Sequence record: NC_070991.1
Reading direction: 5' to 3' (one strand)
DNA length: 64,000 nt
Origin: Escherichia phage vB_EcoP_WFI101126
Within the stretch, counting starts at the first letter, position 1. Each line of letters begins with the position of its first letter. A program made the translations under genes and the position numbers. Below, one piece after another: positions 30,945-49,432 of the stretch. The notes under the pieces are model-generated. The model did not search any database. It saw only the letters and a program-made list of their open reading frames with translations, and had not been told where the DNA came from.

Positions 30945-31471
30945 TTATTCTCCTAACAGCTTACGTATTCCATTGCGGAAATTATCGTACTCTTCAGGGT
31001 ATTCAAACCCACACTCAAGAAGAGCATAGTGAACAACCTTCAACAAATCCTGAACCTTATTCTTATCTTTGTGTCGATAAGCATATTTGATCATATTGGT
31101 TTGTTGGAAGTTCAACTGTGGGTTTGCATGATAAAACTCAATAGGTTGAATGATTTTAGATTCCGGGTTATAGTGTGCACCGCCAACCATAGTGTCTAAA
31201 GCTGGACTTCTTTTGCTGGTTTGTTTAGTTGTGGACTTAAAACTGACCACAGGAACAGAAGAGTAAACTATATACTCTTCCCCTACTGGTGGTTTTATTC
31301 TTAGTCCGCGCATGGCATATTCAATCTTCGTGTCAGTGGAACCTGAAGCAATCTCTTCAACAGACTTGCGATAGCTGTCAATAACTGCCCGTAGCATAGA
31401 GATTGTTTTGGTCATATCTTTTACTTTCTCATTAAGTACAACAACCTCTGATTCTTTGAAATCAAACAAAT

Positions 31472-31481
<10 letters not shown>
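30945..31481 (-). CDS. hypothetical phage protein, DUF3310-like
   Basis: GGAHYNPESKIIQPIEFY...NMIKYAYRHKDK...DLLKVVHYALL fits remembered DUF3310 pattern; recollection only. Confidence 0.45.
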
Positions 31482-42345: not shown

Positions 42346-42669
42346 TTAACCATGACGTACACCTGTTTTAAGTCTGTAAACAGATAGGGCCATACAGGCC
42401 ACTGTTTCATTGTGTGGGAGATGCATTCCTGTAGAACCATCCCAATCTTTGAACTCGTTGTCAAAAACTCCGGTAGGTTCTGGATAGAGGTCTTGCAACT
42501 CAACCAAATCGTTAGCAACTTGTTGCCATTTATCATCAGACCAGATAGGGTCATCCAACCAGTAATACAAATAGGAATGGATGATCAATTGCCTTCTATG
42601 CCGATTGATTACTTCAGCGGGACTTATCTCACTTCCATTTGAAGTCCTAAATGTATTACTGTCAATCAT
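42346..42669 (-). CDS. hypothetical protein (107 aa)
   Basis: ORF track; overlapping 42201..42554 ORF judged less likely. Confidence 0.4.
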   Translation of the reverse strand: MIDSNTFRTSNGSEISPAEVINRHRRQLIIHSYLYYWLDDPIWSDDKWQQVANDLVELQDLYPEPTGVFDNEFKDWDGSTGMHLPHNETVACMALSVYRLKTGVRHG

Positions 42670-43214: not shown

Positions 43215-43469
43215 TTAGCCCTCCAAACAAGAACCATTAGACAGTAATTCCACGCTGTCAAGTGTGTAATAATAACCAAAGAATGGGGATGTTAACTTGG
43301 AAACCTTTTTATCAAAAAGAGATTGAGAAACACTCTCTTCTACTCCAACATCTTCAAGCTGTTGTTTTGTAGGATAGTCAGTGAAAGAGCAAAGCACTTC
43401 TATGTCCTCCCCTATGTCCGTGTCTTCAACACGGCTCAGAATCCAAATATCCTTCTTAACCATTTCCAC
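43215..43469 (-). CDS. hypothetical acidic protein (84 aa)
   Basis: ORF track. Confidence 0.4.
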   Translation of the reverse strand: MEMVKKDIWILSRVEDTDIGEDIEVLCSFTDYPTKQQLEDVGVEESVSQSLFDKKVSKLTSPFFGYYYTLDSVELLSNGSCLEG

Positions 43470-44121
43470 TCTCCAAAGTTTTCTTCAGAGCTGCCCACGA
43501 GATAGGGTAGAGCTTCGCCATCTCTTCGTCTACGGATTTAGCAAATACTCGAACTTCGTATTGAGCGTGAGAGGAGAGTCGCTGACGACACAACTCAAAC
43601 CATCCATACAAAGAACCAGTCCACACCCACTCAGTGATCATCCCCTGAGGGAGTACAAATCGGGCTTGCTCTGGTGCAATAAATTCAATCAACTTGTCAT
43701 ATGCTGCTAGAGAAGCTTCATATGCATCGTTAATTAACATTAATGCTTCAGCTCGCTCTCCGTCGATGAGCTGAACCCCTGAACCTGCATGGAGGTCCGA
43801 AGGTCTCGCAAAAATCTCTTTAGGGATGAAGACTTCAACTGCTCCATCTTTATACCGCCGGGACATTTCGTTCCACGAGAATCCAACCTGATGCTTGCCC
43901 AGCTGTCTCGCAATTGCGATAGGTGCTTTGCATCGGAAACTGACTTGCGGGTGTCGGAATGGGGTAACATGCTTCTCTCTTGCGAGGAAGTTGATGAGAC
44001 GTTCATCACGTTCATTTAAATCACCTTCACGGGTTACGCCAAAGGAAACTCGAGCTGCGTTTACTACGCTACGATCACTTCCCATAGCTTCGATTAATGT
44101 TGCTTGTAATTGTTCATTCAT
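43456..44121 (-). CDS. thyX: flavin-dependent thymidylate synthase (ThyX family), divergent motif
   Basis: AARVSF...TPFRHPQVSFRCKAPIAIARQ...NEMSRRY...SHAQYE resembles ThyX; canonical RHR appears as KHQ. Confidence 0.65.
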   Translation of the reverse strand: MNEQLQATLIEAMGSDRSVVNAARVSFGVTREGDLNERDERLINFLAREKHVTPFRHPQVSFRCKAPIAIARQLGKHQVGFSWNEMSRRYKDGAVEVFIPKEIFARPSDLHAGSGVQLIDGERAEALMLINDAYEASLAAYDKLIEFIAPEQARFVLPQGMITEWVWTGSLYGWFELCRQRLSSHAQYEVRVFAKSVDEEMAKLYPISWAALKKTLESGNG

Positions 44122-44136
44122 CCGTGAATTTCCTTA

Positions 44137-44346
44137 TTAATATTCCTTGATTGGGGATACCACAAAACCACCAAGAGGTGAGGTAAAAGATTTATGTAAG
44201 CTTATTTTGCTATAAATCTTTGGAGCCATCTTAAGAGCCTTCTTAAAACGACGAGCATCTTTACGAGTAGCAAAATGCTCTGTAACAGGTATAGAATGGT
44301 CTTGGTAGATATAATACATCACCGTCCAGTATTTTCCCATAATCAA
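44137..44346 (-). CDS. small basic protein, member of a 4-gene paralog family
   Basis: Shares F.TR..AR..KK ... S.H ... KV.Y pattern with 46201..46816 genes. Confidence 0.5.
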   Translation of the reverse strand: MIMGKYWTVMYYIYQDHSIPVTEHFATRKDARRFKKALKMAPKIYSKISLHKSFTSPLGGFVVSPIKEY

Positions 44347-44615
44347 ACACCTAGTGCAGTAGTTAAAAATGCTTTCAGGTTTGCCTCAGTCTGCATACCA
44401 GAGAGGCTGTAGTGTGCACCACTGTTACGGTCAGGTACGACGAAAGCAGGTATGCTTCGTACACCATATTTAACAGCTTGTTCACGACCATCTCCTTCAA
44501 GGATGTTAATCTCTTCCACTTCTACATCAAACTCCCTAACAACCTTCTCAAAGGTAGGAGCCATTGCTTTACATGGAGCACACTGATCACTATAAAACTT
44601 AATTACTTTACTCAT
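44343..44615 (-). CDS. thioredoxin (start trimmed to ATG 44615)
   Basis: FYSDQCAPCKAMAP: CxxC active site in thioredoxin-fold context. Confidence 0.7.
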   Translation of the reverse strand: MSKVIKFYSDQCAPCKAMAPTFEKVVREFDVEVEEINILEGDGREQAVKYGVRSIPAFVVPDRNSGAHYSLSGMQTEANLKAFLTTALGV

Positions 44616-45241: not shown

Positions 45242-45853
45242 TTAGTAAGACACGTCACCACTTGAATGGGACATGTTGCTCTTGACGAAGTAGCAATACT
45301 TGCCAAGACCTTCATTAATTTCTTGAAGCATACTCTGATCGACAGGGTAGGATGCTAAATCGCCATCAAACTCATCCATCTTCTCAATAATACACATCAA
45401 GGTCATGCACATATCAGAGAGCATACCGTCCATATCCAGATCAGCATTACCCTCTGAGAACCAAGCATGGGAGAGGTAGTTAGCTGCTGTAGCATCCACC
45501 TTAACACAATGGTATCGCATACGCTCAGCAATACGATCTCCTACTTGTCGTGCGTAATCTTCCAGCTCATCAAACATACCATGAACACCCTGAAATCCTG
45601 CACCAGAGACATTCCAGTGGTAGTTCTTAGCTTTGATATGCAAGAGTTCCATGTTAGTTTGTAAGCAGCTTAGGATGTGTTCTAGGCTGTTTCCACTAAT
45701 CATACCCTGCATAGTTTCAAGGCGAGAGATTGAAAGCTCAGACCGGTCTAACATGTTATATTCTGCACGACCCATCTCAGGTAAATCAAAGACATTCTTA
45801 TGCATTTGGGTTTTCTCCATCAAGTTCAACTGAGTTAGCAACGTTACGTGCAA
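45242..45853 (-). CDS. Dps/ferritin-like protein (true start possibly 45820 or 45805)
   Basis: HWNVSGAGFQGVHGMFDELEDY matches the Dps ferroxidase-site pattern HWN..G..F..H..DE. Confidence 0.6.
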   Translation of the reverse strand: MHVTLLTQLNLMEKTQMHKNVFDLPEMGRAEYNMLDRSELSISRLETMQGMISGNSLEHILSCLQTNMELLHIKAKNYHWNVSGAGFQGVHGMFDELEDYARQVGDRIAERMRYHCVKVDATAANYLSHAWFSEGNADLDMDGMLSDMCMTLMCIIEKMDEFDGDLASYPVDQSMLQEINEGLGKYCYFVKSNMSHSSGDVSY

Positions 45854-46200: not shown

Positions 46201-46410
46201 TCAGTAATAAATTACTTTAGACATAAAAGAACCCGAGCTAGGGTCTTCGTACCAGCGATGAATGTCAGCACTTTTAACAGTTCCTATTAGAGCTTTCATG
46301 TTCTTTTTAGCGACACGAGCCTCTTTGCGAGTGTTAAACAGTTTGATATTATCTTTACCTAAGTGTTGTTTCTGTTCCCAAACAACACGAACAGCCCACA
46401 TCTTTTTCAT
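46201..46410 (-). CDS. small basic protein, paralog family member
   Basis: Tandem with two further copies; conserved TR..AR..KK and C-terminal KV.YY. Confidence 0.5.
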   Translation of the reverse strand: MKKMWAVRVVWEQKQHLGKDNIKLFNTRKEARVAKKNMKALIGTVKSADIHRWYEDPSSGSFMSKVIYY

Positions 46411-46619
46411 TAGTAATGTACCTTTCCGCTGATATAAATACGACCAGAAGAATACTCTTTGGCCTTATGGATACTGATACTGTTGACCACGTCACCAATA
46501 AGCATAGTCTTTTTAAAATCTCTAGCTTGTTGGCGAGTGGGCAGTGCAGTCATAGTCATACCACCTGATGCCCACTTAATCTTTGCTAACCAAAATTGTC
46601 TCATAGTGATTGGTCTCAT
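46410..46619 (-). CDS. small basic protein, paralog family member
   Basis: As above; 1-nt overlaps between consecutive genes. Confidence 0.5.
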   Translation of the reverse strand: MRPITMRQFWLAKIKWASGGMTMTALPTRQQARDFKKTMLIGDVVNSISIHKAKEYSSGRIYISGKVHY

Positions 46620-46816
46620 TAATAATAAACCTTGCTGTTGGCAAAAAGAGCACCTTCGTTATTCACAATAGCTTTTCCTATTGTAATCTTACCTGACAGA
46701 CCTATCCCCTTAAAAAGCTTCTTAATTCGACGGGCGTGCTCTCGAGTATTAACAAAATCTACAGATTTTATATCACCTGTCTTGTTATCATGTACACGAA
46801 CAATCCACTTTTTCAT
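46619..46816 (-). CDS. small basic protein, paralog family member
   Basis: As above. Confidence 0.5.
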   Translation of the reverse strand: MKKWIVRVHDNKTGDIKSVDFVNTREHARRIKKLFKGIGLSGKITIGKAIVNNEGALFANSKVYY

Positions 46817-47019: not shown

Positions 47020-47553
47020 TTACACACCTTTAGATGCAACTACACCTTCAGAGTTATTATAACGACCCTTCACTGCATAGGAGTGTTCCCCTGCATGAGA
47101 GTGCTCAAACATGACCATCTGACCAACACGCATACCAGCACGAACTCGTAAGCTATGATGCTTGGTTACGTTATGGAACTCAAATGTCAGCTTACTGCTG
47201 TTAAACCCTGCGTCTGCCCACCCGGCGTGGAGATGGTTCAAACCACAACGAGCCATAGACGAACGCAGAACAAACAGACTTGAGATGTTATCTGGAAGAT
47301 TAAACTCCTCCATAGAGTGAGCCAAGAAAAACTGACCCGGAGTGATAACCAAACCCTCTTCAGGAATCTTTACTTCTTTCCACTGAAGATTCTCTTTCGC
47401 ATCAATATCAACGATGCCATCAGCCTGTTCTTCAACAAGGATAGTATCACCAATACGGATATCCACACTAGCAGCGTTAACATACTTATGCTCCGCATCC
47501 AGATAGCCATTGTCAATTACATCGTGCAGTTCAACACTTCCTAGTAAACTCAT
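47020..47553 (-). CDS. dCTP deaminase / dUTPase-family enzyme
   Basis: ASVDIRIGD...HAGWADAGFNSSKLTFEFHN...RVGQMVMF matches dCTP deaminase/dUTPase trimer fold motifs. Confidence 0.7.
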   Translation of the reverse strand: MSLLGSVELHDVIDNGYLDAEHKYVNAASVDIRIGDTILVEEQADGIVDIDAKENLQWKEVKIPEEGLVITPGQFFLAHSMEEFNLPDNISSLFVLRSSMARCGLNHLHAGWADAGFNSSKLTFEFHNVTKHHSLRVRAGMRVGQMVMFEHSHAGEHSYAVKGRYNNSEGVVASKGV

Positions 47554-47562
47554 TCTTATTCC

Positions 47563-48873
47563 TTAGTTATTTGTTTCCATGTCAAAAGAGATTCCACGAC
47601 CCGCTTCATCGGCAAACCGATCATCGAGACTGTGACTGACAGTATCAGCAAGTTCTTCATGAGAGGGAATGTCAAGACTACCTACCACATCTTGAGCAGA
47701 AGCTTCATCAGTCCAGATAACACGAGAAGGGGCGTTGATATCACCAACAGCAAAACCCTGACCAGAGAACTGGTGACGGCTAACAGTCAAACCATTTGAT
47801 CGACTACGAGAAGGACTAGACATCCATCTCTCCATAGAATCACTTGTAATGCCAAGAGCTTCTTCAAAAGATGTTCTACGAGAAGAGCTTAGATTTCGTG
47901 CTTCATTTGCTCGGCGTCTTGTAGGGGCTACAAACACCCCTTCGATTGCGTTATGACGACTAGGCTCTTCTTCTCTACCAAGCAAATCACCACCCGTGTT
48001 AGTCGTTAAATTTGTCAACCCTTCAGACCAATACGCATAAATTTGACCAGACCCATGAAGACTTGACATAATCTGAATCTCTTCATAGGGGATTCCAAAG
48101 AATCGACTCATGTCACGGTTAACGCAATACTGAGCACTTGTTGTATCCTCAATAAGAGAAACCTGACCTAATCCATTAACCAGATGACTAACTGGCTGAG
48201 GTGTAGGAAGGTATCGAGTTTGGGCCATATATTGATATGCAACAGATGGAGCTGAGAATCTTAACACTTGTGAATTAGGCCACTTTTTGTGAACGTATCT
48301 GATTTCACGACTAGAAACAACCACAGGGCAAGGAGCGGTCATAGCTAAATACCCATGAGGGGTCATGAATAAGTTGTCAAGAGTCATCGCACCACGGCAC
48401 ATCATAGGAAAATTATCCAGAACCTCTTCAATAGAAGTAGGATAATTAAACATGAATTGGATACGAACCCCATTCCACTGAAACTCAATAATATCAGTGA
48501 ATGTTAATTGAGAACCCCCAGCATAGGACTCGTTTGTAGCCTCAGCAAGAAGAGATGAATACTCAATATCTTGTGACTCAAGCCATTCCTTCACGTTACT
48601 TTCAATTTCTCTTCCAAGAGCTTGCCAATGATCAGTTGATGTGAAAGTATTTTGGGTTCTTGGTGTTTGTCCTCTGACAATAAAGATATCAATGTCATGT
48701 GGAGCTGTGTTGTTAAGGACAGCATCACGAACAGCCCCACCAGTAATGATGGGACAGATACCGTCTGGAATCAAGTTGTTGTTAATCAACTGTTCAATGA
48801 AGTGACGACCAACAGTGATATCAGGTTGTTGAGCAACCTTATCTTCAATTCGGTTAATCGGGATAACAATCAT
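47563..48873 (-). CDS. pol-beta superfamily nucleotidyltransferase with CCA-adding-enzyme-like head motif
   Basis: ITGGAVRDAVLNNTAPHDIDIFIV (GGxVRD...DxD); remainder has no recognisable CCA body; start set to ATG 48873. Confidence 0.55.
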   Translation of the reverse strand: MIVIPINRIEDKVAQQPDITVGRHFIEQLINNNLIPDGICPIITGGAVRDAVLNNTAPHDIDIFIVRGQTPRTQNTFTSTDHWQALGREIESNVKEWLESQDIEYSSLLAEATNESYAGGSQLTFTDIIEFQWNGVRIQFMFNYPTSIEEVLDNFPMMCRGAMTLDNLFMTPHGYLAMTAPCPVVVSSREIRYVHKKWPNSQVLRFSAPSVAYQYMAQTRYLPTPQPVSHLVNGLGQVSLIEDTTSAQYCVNRDMSRFFGIPYEEIQIMSSLHGSGQIYAYWSEGLTNLTTNTGGDLLGREEEPSRHNAIEGVFVAPTRRRANEARNLSSSRRTSFEEALGITSDSMERWMSSPSRSRSNGLTVSRHQFSGQGFAVGDINAPSRVIWTDEASAQDVVGSLDIPSHEELADTVSHSLDDRFADEAGRGISFDMETNN

Positions 48874-48874
48874 T

Positions 48875-49432
48875 TTACATTTTCCAATATAATGAAGGTG
48901 GGTCGTAAGGGTCAAATCCTGTGAGTTCACACAAGAAAAGATAAACCTTAACAGTTAAGTTAACGTCCTGTTCACAATAAGTAAACATATCTTCAGTGAA
49001 AGCATCCCATGCTTCCTCTTGCTCGCCATAATCGCCCTTAAGTTCTCCTAAGAACTCACCCCACTGCTTCAAACCATGACCTCTTGGGCCACGTCTAGGG
49101 TCGCCTTTCGGATACTCAGGACTGTCACCAATACGGTCAGGTTTAAGATATCGACTAAGACATAAAGTGTCAAAGACGTTAAAACGATATTCAATTAGAT
49201 TAGGATACATTTTCTTCAGAGCACAAAGGTCGAAGTCAATAATATTATGACCCACGAGCACATCTGCTTCTGTCAGTTTACGAATCCCGTCTTCGATTTG
49301 GTGAGGCCGATAGCCCCACCTTTCACCAGTTTCAACATCGAAGATATAAATACACCATACTTTAGTTATGTCATCGTACAGTGCATTACTCTCGATATCG
49401 AATGCAAACACTTTCTTCTTTTTCTTTACCAC
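48875..49432 (-). CDS. DEDDy 3'-5' exonuclease, separate from polymerase
   Basis: [10 protein letters not shown] (Exo I), HNIIDFDL (Exo II), YCEQD (Exo III). Confidence 0.75.

Follow-up and report, generated by a model that had tools for sequence, protein, structure and literature searches.

A variant RHR motif in the ThyX of a phiEco32-like phage appears to be the signature of a conserved, mostly viral subfamily

Introduction

Does a phage protein that resembles the flavin-dependent thymidylate synthase ThyX in every respect but its hallmark motif still convert dUMP to dTMP, or have its substrate or its chemistry changed together with the motif? The literal signature of ThyX proteins is RHR-X7-S (Myllykallio 2002, quoted in PMC2826268). 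In the 64-kb stretch of phage DNA that was analysed here (the window), a ThyX-like open reading frame reads KHQ where RHR would stand. The group to which the phage can be assigned, Gordonclarkvirinae, was reported to be resistant to restriction–modification (RM) systems, the cause of the resistance being left unexplained (Humolli et al., PMC11990801). In the same study, the presence of deoxyuridine in the DNA of these phages was speculated from their dCTP deaminase and nucleotidyltransferase genes, and thyX was not mentioned (PMC11990801).

Results

Identity and genomic setting of the phage thyX gene

The 6-kb stretch around the gene shares 92–95% DNA identity with Escherichia phages NJ01, Paul, 172-1, MN05 and others, and the annotated ThyX proteins of phiEco32, SU10, Paul and the BASEL phages Bas90 and Bas91 are 98–99% identical to the window protein. 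As judged by these identities, the window is therefore part of a Kuravirus genome, and represents most of the ~77 kb of a phiEco32-like podophage (Kuravirus, Gordonclarkvirinae). Its G+C content is ~42%, and in its part beyond ~29 kb transcription is from the minus strand. The gene and the motif under study are located as follows:

43456..44121, minus strand: thyX, predicted flavin-dependent thymidylate synthase of 221 aa, of the [K/R]-H-x...X8...S-R-R-Y subfamily (assigned by ORF, Pfam, TIGR02170, PDB search and AF2/Foldseek)
43852..43896, minus strand: variant motif K76-H77-Q78-V-G-F-S-W-N-E-M-S87-R88-R89-Y90 (assigned by translation check and alignments)

The open reading frame starts with ATG, which is preceded by AAGGA ~10 nt to its 5' side. 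The four blocks by which the initial annotation had recognised a ThyX-like protein (AARVSF, KAPIAIARQ, NEMSRRY and SHAQYE) are all present in the translation, in the form of NAARVSFG, CKAPIAIARQ, WNEMSRRY and SSHAQYEV. The protein matched Pfam Thy1 (PF02511) with an E-value of 2e-43 and 148.8 bits (cut-off 24.8) over profile positions 1–190 of 191, and scored 128.9 bits with the NCBIfam thyX equivalog TIGR02170 (cut-off 87.9). Its top solved relatives in a HMMER search against PDB were Thermus thermophilus Thy1 (6j61, 8.8e-32) and Thermotoga maritima TM0449 (4e-25). The AlphaFold2 model of the protein, calculated with 50 homologues, was of high confidence (pLDDT 94.7, pTM 0.89); in Foldseek it matched T. 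maritima ThyX with a TM score of 0.76–0.81, and all 50 PDB matches listed for it were ThyX chains. By all testable criteria but the literal RHR-X7-S, the phage protein belongs to the ThyX family. The gene as such is already known, as it is annotated as a thymidylate synthase gene in more than 100 related phiEco32-like genomes.

KHQ and an inserted residue at the RHR site

In HMMER pairwise alignments and in two independent MAFFT alignments, R78-H79-R80 of T. maritima ThyX correspond to K76-H77-Q78 of the phage protein (43888–43896). HMMER and MAFFT also placed a single inserted residue, F81, between the K-H-Q triplet and the conserved N-E-x-S, while S88-G89-R90-Y91 of T. maritima correspond to S87-R88-R89-Y90 (43852–43863). 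Thus, the phage protein, which reads K76-H77-Q78-X8-S87, does not conform to the family signature RHR-X7-S, and the initial reading of KHQ at the RHR site with a one-residue insertion was borne out, the insertion being F81. The possibility had been raised that a canonical RHR is placed elsewhere in the protein; when the whole 221-aa translation was read and the HMMER and MAFFT alignments were inspected, no second RHR was found at any other site.

To follow the remaining functional positions, we traced those of T. maritima ThyX through 119 close and 126 more distant relatives of the phage protein (245 sequences, down to ~40% identity). The T. maritima residues R74, Q75, E86, S88, R90, Y91, R147, R174 and H53 have R72, Q73, E85, S87, R89, Y90, R154, R181 and H51 as their phage equivalents, all of them kept, and the equivalents of the dUMP-binding or dUMP-activating residues and of H53 are invariant or nearly so among the 245 relatives. 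Position 78 (T. maritima numbering), which is K76 in the phage protein, is basic in 244 of the 245 sequences (lysine in 219, arginine in 25), and position 79 is histidine in 228/245 and serine in 16/245. The next position, 80, is unconstrained (Q, K, T, H, V, E). At position 89, where the canonical enzymes have G, Q, A or S, 236/245 sequences have arginine. Departures from T. maritima ThyX (UniProt Q9WYT0) were also seen at N163, R165 and N169, which we take to be FAD contacts and which are replaced by S170, Y172 and E176 in the phage protein. The solved T. thermophilus Thy1 also departs from T. maritima ThyX at these three positions (D, H and H), and they are therefore not diagnostic.

Spread and conservation of the variant signature

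Among the 120 closest clusters of relatives (90%-identity clusters, 54–92% identity), which take in Suseptimavirus, Salmonella phage SeKF_80 and Yersinia phage PYps23T, the triplet is KHQ in 119 and KSQ in one, the spacer has eight residues in all 120, and the downstream block is SRRY in 117 and SMRY in three. In the alignment of the 119 closest full-length proteins out of these 120 cluster representatives, K and Q of the triplet are present in 119/119 sequences, H in 118/119, and the arginine equivalent to R88 in 116/119. When the distant relatives are included, the signature [K/R]-H-x...X8...S-R-R-Y is still near-invariant across ~245 sequences.

When 1.84 billion proteins were searched exhaustively with HMMER, ~6,900 ThyX-like clusters were found, 356 of them with E<1e-30. 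The best 150 representatives were inspected, and the motif could be read in 133 of them: 62 of these carry the exact KHQ/X8/SRRY combination, and S-R-R-Y is present in all but five. Extrapolated from the best 150 of the ~6,900 clusters, the variant type is estimated to form a minority branch of ThyX, at a few percent.

The states of the triplet and of residue 89 appear to covary. In a small phage sample, RHR occurs with S[G/A/Q]RY (T. maritima, Thermus phage TMA, the mycobacteriophages Myrna and Theia, and the cyanophages S-ESS1 and S-TIM61), and K[H/Y]x with SRRY (SIO1, Rheinheimera phage Barba2S, Geobacillus phage PK5.1, Streptomyces phage Yaboi, Bacillus phage Curly and the present phage), so that the two states of the triplet segregate perfectly with residue 89. 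The covariation is imperfect on the larger scale, as a few representatives from the HMMER search show the mixed states KHQ/S-G-R-Y or RHR/S-R-R-Y. As to the genomic contexts of the distant members of the subfamily, one lies on a giant-virus-like contig and another on a large-phage contig.

Taken together, these comparisons indicate that KHQ, the inserted residue and SRRY form a conserved signature of a whole, mostly viral ThyX subfamily of hundreds of clusters, and are not a local oddity of one phage. We found no description of [K/R]-H-x-x-G-x-x-W-[N/S]-E-x-S-R-R-Y as the signature of this ThyX branch in the literature. No solved structure of a KHQ/SRRY member was found either, all listed PDB matches being chains of the RHR type, nor was a biochemical or genetic test of a member of the subfamily found in the literature.

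The same variant in bacterial chromosomes

A scan of 185,579 species-representative genomes with a pattern derived from a 12-sequence alignment revealed at least 50 loci, a number that is limited by the pattern. All 49 loci that were readable carry SRRY with KHQ (KSQ in one case). Many of them are located on short contigs of metagenome-assembled genomes (MAGs) or in prophage-like regions (Phenylobacterium; two Nitrososphaerales MAG contigs).

Several others have a plainly cellular setting. In the closed 1.79-Mb chromosome of a member of Spirochaetia, the variant thyX is flanked on one side by genes for lipoamide dehydrogenase, citrate synthase and two oxidoreductases, and on the other side by genes for dihydroorotate dehydrogenase, OMP decarboxylase/PRTase, aspartate carbamoyltransferase and an amidohydrolase, which is likely a dihydroorotase. 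A second Spirochaete genome has a locus that is collinear with this one along 12.6 kb, and the ThyX proteins of the two are 65% identical. In MAGs of Chloroflexota, Poribacteria and Nitrospinota, the variant thyX also occupies non-phage neighbourhoods, with flanking genes for 2-oxoacid dehydrogenase subunits, an MFS transporter, an enolase-superfamily enzyme, an aminotransferase, AcrB/HlyD, IspH and MlaA. A housekeeping thymidylate synthase would be expected to be retained in just this way, next to genes of pyrimidine synthesis in free-living bacteria.

As a separate observation, a homologue search seeded with the Spirochaete ThyX revealed no cultured carrier of the variant by name, and the nearest relatives in this search are mostly encoded by contigs shorter than ~55 kb, several of them of ~43 kb, which may be phage-sized.

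Neighbouring genes and the probable route to dTTP

Two neighbours of the phage gene had been singled out in the initial annotation, a thioredoxin next to thyX and a dCTP-deaminase-like gene nearby. Both were recovered by profile searches:

44343..44615, minus strand: thioredoxin-fold protein with the active site CAPC (Pfam Thioredoxin 3.8e-13; ATG start checked)
47020..47553, minus strand: dCTP deaminase (dcd), probable supplier of deoxyuridine nucleotides for ThyX (Pfam DCD 3.5e-34; TIGR02274; PHROG)

The thioredoxin-fold gene lies upstream of thyX and is separated from it by one ORF of 69 aa. Its score with the NCBIfam thioredoxin equivalog was below the cut-off (48.7 vs. 96.8), and the protein is listed here as a neighbour of ThyX. 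A glutaredoxin gene adjoins the ThyX gene of Rheinheimera phage Barba2S, which may reflect a general clustering of nucleotide-metabolism genes.

The dcd gene, 2.9 kb upstream of thyX, scored 107.7 bits with the dCTP deaminase equivalog TIGR02274 (cut-off 92.8) and matched the PHROG dCTP deaminase family at 2.7e-60. A tblastn search of the window with ThyA and Dut of E. coli and ThyX of T. maritima as queries detected neither ThyA nor dUTPase nor a second ThyX, leaving thyX as the sole thymidylate synthase homologue of the window. Similarly, the annotation of the complete genome of Bas90, a close relative, lists no ThyA, trimeric dUTPase, second ThyX, ribonucleotide reductase (RNR) or dihydrofolate reductase (DHFR). 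By the standard route, dCTP would be deaminated to dUTP by the phage Dcd, dUTP would be converted to dUMP by the host Dut, and dUMP would be methylated by ThyX to dTMP, which host kinases would then phosphorylate. Such a route would raise the supply of dTTP for a phage genome of 42% G+C in a host of 51% G+C. An additional candidate member of the pathway, the "dNMP kinase" annotated in Bas90, was rejected, as its counterpart in the window (30945–31481) matches only Pfam DUF3310.

Restriction sites in the window

The window contains 32 EcoRV, 10 EcoKI and 103 EcoP1I sites. These numbers are near the expected frequency, with no depletion, which implies that some mechanism of protection exists. 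Other sites are strongly avoided: CCWGG was found 4 times vs. 80 expected, CTGCAG 0 vs. 17, GAGCTC 0 vs. 11, GGTACC 0 vs. 6, and GATC 130 vs. 295; EcoRI sites are strongly avoided as well. The strong avoidance of CCWGG, CTGCAG, GAGCTC and GATC indicates that the DNA has been exposed to restriction enzymes. Site avoidance was considered as the full cause of the RM resistance and rejected, because the EcoRV, EcoKI and EcoP1I sites are undepleted. Restriction profiling and subcloning have served to locate the genome ends of phiEco32 (PMC9965538), and thus the DNA of this phage can be cut and cloned.

The annotation of Bas90, in which many ORFs are hypothetical, includes no hydroxymethylase, 5-hmdU kinase, transferase or glycosyltransferase of thymidine hypermodification. 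The window contains an uncharacterised cluster of amidoligase, glutamine amidotransferase, ATP-grasp-like and gamma-glutamyl cyclotransferase genes (51436–58645).

Discussion

A relocated arginine as the simplest reading

The phage gene most probably encodes a working flavin-dependent thymidylate synthase that carries out the ordinary conversion of dUMP to dTMP; we assign this reading a probability of about 0.85. By analogy with other ThyX enzymes, the protein would be a homotetramer with bound FAD. The flavin would be reduced by NADPH, the carbon of methylene-tetrahydrofolate would be transferred through flavin N5 to C5 of dUMP, and a hydride from the reduced flavin would then complete the formation of dTMP and tetrahydrofolate. 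Since ThyX regenerates tetrahydrofolate in this way, no DHFR would be needed. As predicted by alignment, dUMP would be held by R72, Q73, K76, E85, S87, R89, Y90 and R154 and activated by R181, and the flavin/folate site would be flanked by H51 and H77.

The role of the RHR triplet in enzymes of the canonical type is more complex than had been assumed in the initial annotation, where it was taken as the site that binds the phosphate of dUMP. Its contact with dUMP is supported by the naming of R78, R80, S88 and R90 as dUMP hydrogen-bonding residues (PMC3498832). However, the triplet is not simply a phosphate site, as in reduced T. maritima ThyX the guanidinium group of R78 faces N1/C2=O of FADH- and stabilises it (PMC11940539). 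In the phage protein, K76 in place of R78 could present a positive charge to N1/C2=O of the reduced flavin, if lysine is equivalent to arginine in this respect. In the ThyX of PBCV-1, the pocket for the dUMP phosphate can accommodate the side chain of residue 89 (PMC3498832), and R88 of the phage S-R-R-Y block might reach the same pocket and replace the function of the lost R80, which is Q78 here. Thus, in the simplest reading, the flavin-facing charge would be kept as lysine, and an arginine would have been relocated from position 80 to position 89.

Alternative readings of the variant

A change in chemistry would be the most far-reaching alternative to an ordinary thymidylate synthase. The enzyme would make a C5-modified dUMP, such as 5-hydroxymethyl-dUMP, through the capture of water by the exocyclic-methylene intermediate, and this product would feed a protective modification of thymidine. 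The exocyclic methylene intermediate of ThyX is indeed open to nucleophiles (PMC8989533), and a paralogue of the Thy1 family in Bacillus phage SP-15, gp130, was proposed to be an hmdUMP synthase (PMC5977210). The unexplained RM resistance of Gordonclarkvirinae (PMC11990801), the near-expected frequency of EcoRV, EcoKI and EcoP1I sites, and the amidoligase-type gene cluster in the window would also fit. Nevertheless, we consider this reading quite unlikely. The signature is common to bacterial housekeeping loci, diverse phages, including marine ones, and giant-virus contexts, and is not tied to the restriction-resistant group; another SP-15 protein, gp9, which by its description is of the same general type as the window ThyX, was proposed to be a true thymidylate synthase (PMC5977210). 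Moreover, a second thymidylate synthase that could supply normal dTMP was not found in the window by tblastn, neither 5-hmdU kinase nor glycosyltransferase is annotated in Bas90 (many of whose ORFs are hypothetical), the avoidance of CCWGG, CTGCAG, GAGCTC and GATC is a mark of DNA exposed to restriction, and the DNA of phiEco32 could be restriction-mapped and subcloned (PMC9965538). It is very unlikely, in our view, that the Kuravirus ThyX makes a C5-modified deoxyuridylate instead of, or in addition to, dTMP, and that such a product explains the restriction resistance of Gordonclarkvirinae. If it did, the Kuravirus enzyme would be the first flavin-dependent enzyme shown to feed phage DNA modification.

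A change of substrate, to UMP, as in the methylation by PolB of polyoxin biosynthesis, or to dCMP, can be weighed against the same residues. Two arginines that bond dUMP, R78 and R80 (PMC3498832), are both changed in the phage protein, and PolB (PDB 4p5a) is detectably related to it (2e-16). Against this, the invariance of R181 (R174 of T. maritima, which binds and activates the uracil ring), R89, S87, E85 and Q73 points to uracil rather than cytosine, the top matches in structure and sequence are true thymidylate synthases and not PolB, and the product of the nearby dCTP deaminase is a deoxyuridine nucleotide, all of which makes a new substrate highly improbable. We give even less credence to the protein being a catalytically impaired relic, or a moonlighting protein that would only bind dUMP or only oxidise NADPH: of the hallmark triplet only the histidine is kept, but the motif and every catalytic residue are under extreme purifying selection among relatives that are 40–99% identical, and the gene is retained in bacterial chromosomes. 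Of the two possibilities entertained in the initial annotation, the tolerated variant is therefore favoured by the subfamily-wide signature, the kept catalytic residues and the housekeeping contexts in bacteria, whereas a changed substrate or chemistry is unsupported by sequence.

Significance

With the ordinary synthesis of dTMP as the preferred reading, the finding is overall an ordinary one: a footnote for the annotation of ThyX and a small structure–function hypothesis. The textbook signature RHR-X7-S misses a sizeable, mostly viral branch of ThyX, and genuine enzymes would probably be lost to filters like that quoted in PMC2826268. For this branch, the apparent relocation of an arginine between positions 80 and 89 offers a testable hypothesis on structure and function. 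Additionally, a conserved thyX as the only thymidylate synthase gene is evidence against DNA with deoxyuridine in place of thymidine; DNA of this type, as in PBS1, is hard to reconcile with a thyX that is conserved and apparently intact throughout the group. This counters the published suggestion for Gordonclarkvirinae, and the cause of their restriction resistance is to be sought elsewhere.

Comparison with known ThyX systems

Among homologues with a different role, PolB of Streptomyces cacaoi (PDB 4p5a) is a UMP/dUMP C5-methylase of polyoxin biosynthesis. It shares the ThyX fold with the phage protein, but it is far more distant from it than the true synthases are and is encoded in a nucleoside-antibiotic cluster, a context that has no counterpart in the window. 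A674R of PBCV-1 (PDB 2cfa, 4fzb) is, like the phage protein, a virus-encoded ThyX that supplies dTMP, and it has been characterised both biochemically and structurally, but it is only distantly related to the phage protein (E 2e-7). It presumably carries the canonical RHR together with S-Q-R-Y.

The ThyX proteins of Roseobacter phage SIO1, Rheinheimera Barbavirus, Bacillus Andromedavirus and Streptomyces phages, which are annotated as thymidylate synthases, are of the same K-[H/Y]-x...S-R-R-Y type as the window ThyX and 35–45% identical to it. They differ in the spacer, which is X7 in SIO1 and contains a long insertion in the enzymes of the Bacillus and Streptomyces phages, in contrast to X8 in the window ThyX. 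SP-15 gp9, the proposed true synthase, was described as related to the Andromedavirus and Streptomyces phage proteins (PMC5977210); we found no experimental test of any of these proteins, gp9 included, in the literature. The closest enzymes with solved structures are T. maritima ThyX (TM0449; PDB 1o26 and others) and T. thermophilus Thy1 (6j61), which have the same fold as the phage protein (TM 0.73–0.81) at 31–34% identity. Relative to them, RHR-X7-S-G-R-Y has become KHQ-X8-S-R-R-Y: R80 is lost, R78 is replaced by lysine, one residue is inserted, and a new arginine stands at position 89.

Avoidance of restriction sites and candidate modification genes

When the counts of palindromes and other sites over the whole window (1-64000) were compared with maximal-order Markov expectations, certain short palindromes turned out to be strongly and selectively avoided. 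Depletion was observed for CCWGG (4 observed vs. 80 expected), CTGCAG (0 vs. 17), GAGCTC (0 vs. 11), GGTACC (0 vs. 6), GATC (130 vs. 295) and GAATTC (5 vs. 13). Over the same 1-64000 stretch, no depletion was seen for GATATC (the EcoRV site, 32 vs. 35), GTTAAC (28 vs. 28) or AGACC (the EcoP1I site, 103 vs. 110), and 10 EcoKI sites are present. Restriction-modification resistance has been published for Gordonclarkvirinae (PMC11990801). Taken together, these site counts and this resistance imply some protection mechanism other than site avoidance alone.

The gene cluster at 51436-58645 (minus strand) is among the candidates that might encode an uncharacterised modification system. Its members are:

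51436-51855, minus strand: gamma-glutamyl cyclotransferase
52362-53558, minus strand: ATP-grasp-like protein (weak match)
54002-55693, minus strand: glutamine amidotransferase
56112-57215, minus strand: Amidoligase_2 protein
57839-58645, minus strand: 'phiEco32-like COOH-NH2 ligase'

A possible DNA-modification gene named by Humolli et al. (PMC11990801) lies directly downstream of dcd, the dCTP deaminase gene:

47563-48930, minus strand: nucleotidyltransferase, 455 aa

Its product matches the PolyA_pol/CCA-adding head domain only weakly (E 6e-4), and matches one PHROG, apparently restricted to the phiEco32-like phage group, at 798.6 bits over the full-length profile. As the relative Bas90 has a tRNA-Arg, tRNA might be the target of this enzyme as an alternative to DNA modification.

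Small ORFs and annotations in relatives

There are four small ORFs of 65-69 aa each:

44137-44346, minus strand: between thyX and the thioredoxin gene; matches phrog_4939, a family of unknown function
46201-46410, minus strand: first of three in tandem
46410-46619, minus strand: second of three in tandem
46619-46816, minus strand: third of three in tandem

Judged by sequence, they look like paralogues: a T-R-x-x-A-R-x-x-K-K core is common to all four, and the last two residues are YY, HY or EY in most of them.

Three further genes have counterparts in relatives that carry other labels:

42346-42669, minus strand: Nlig-Ia-only ORF, 107 aa (Pfam Nlig-Ia, 3e-33)
30945-31481, minus strand: DUF3310 protein, 178 aa (sole Pfam match)
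45242-45853, minus strand: ferritin-like (Dps-like) domain protein, 203 aa (Pfam Ferritin, 3.3e-7; phrog_3636)

The first, labelled 'DNA ligase' in relatives, contains nothing beyond domain Ia, the N-terminal NAD+-binding part of NAD-dependent DNA ligase, and is far below ligase size; it might modulate host LigA. The second corresponds to a Bas90 gene labelled 'deoxynucleoside monophosphate kinase' (178 aa vs. 297 aa in Bas90), a label that looks unsupported here. Counterparts of the third are labelled 'DNA binding protein'.

Related thyX genes in Spirochaetes

ThyX of the type with KHQ and SRRY in place of RHR and S-G-R-Y is also encoded in two Spirochaete genomes:

L020, 5980-6636: KHQ/SRRY-type thyX
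L021, 5980-6636: KHQ/SRRY-type thyX

In both, the gene occupies a conserved chromosomal locus adjoining pyrimidine-synthesis genes. Most of its closest relatives are found on contigs below ~55 kb (several of ~43 kb), which look phage-sized. Such contigs, together with the conserved chromosomal locus, suggest that a viral thyX was captured by this bacterial lineage.
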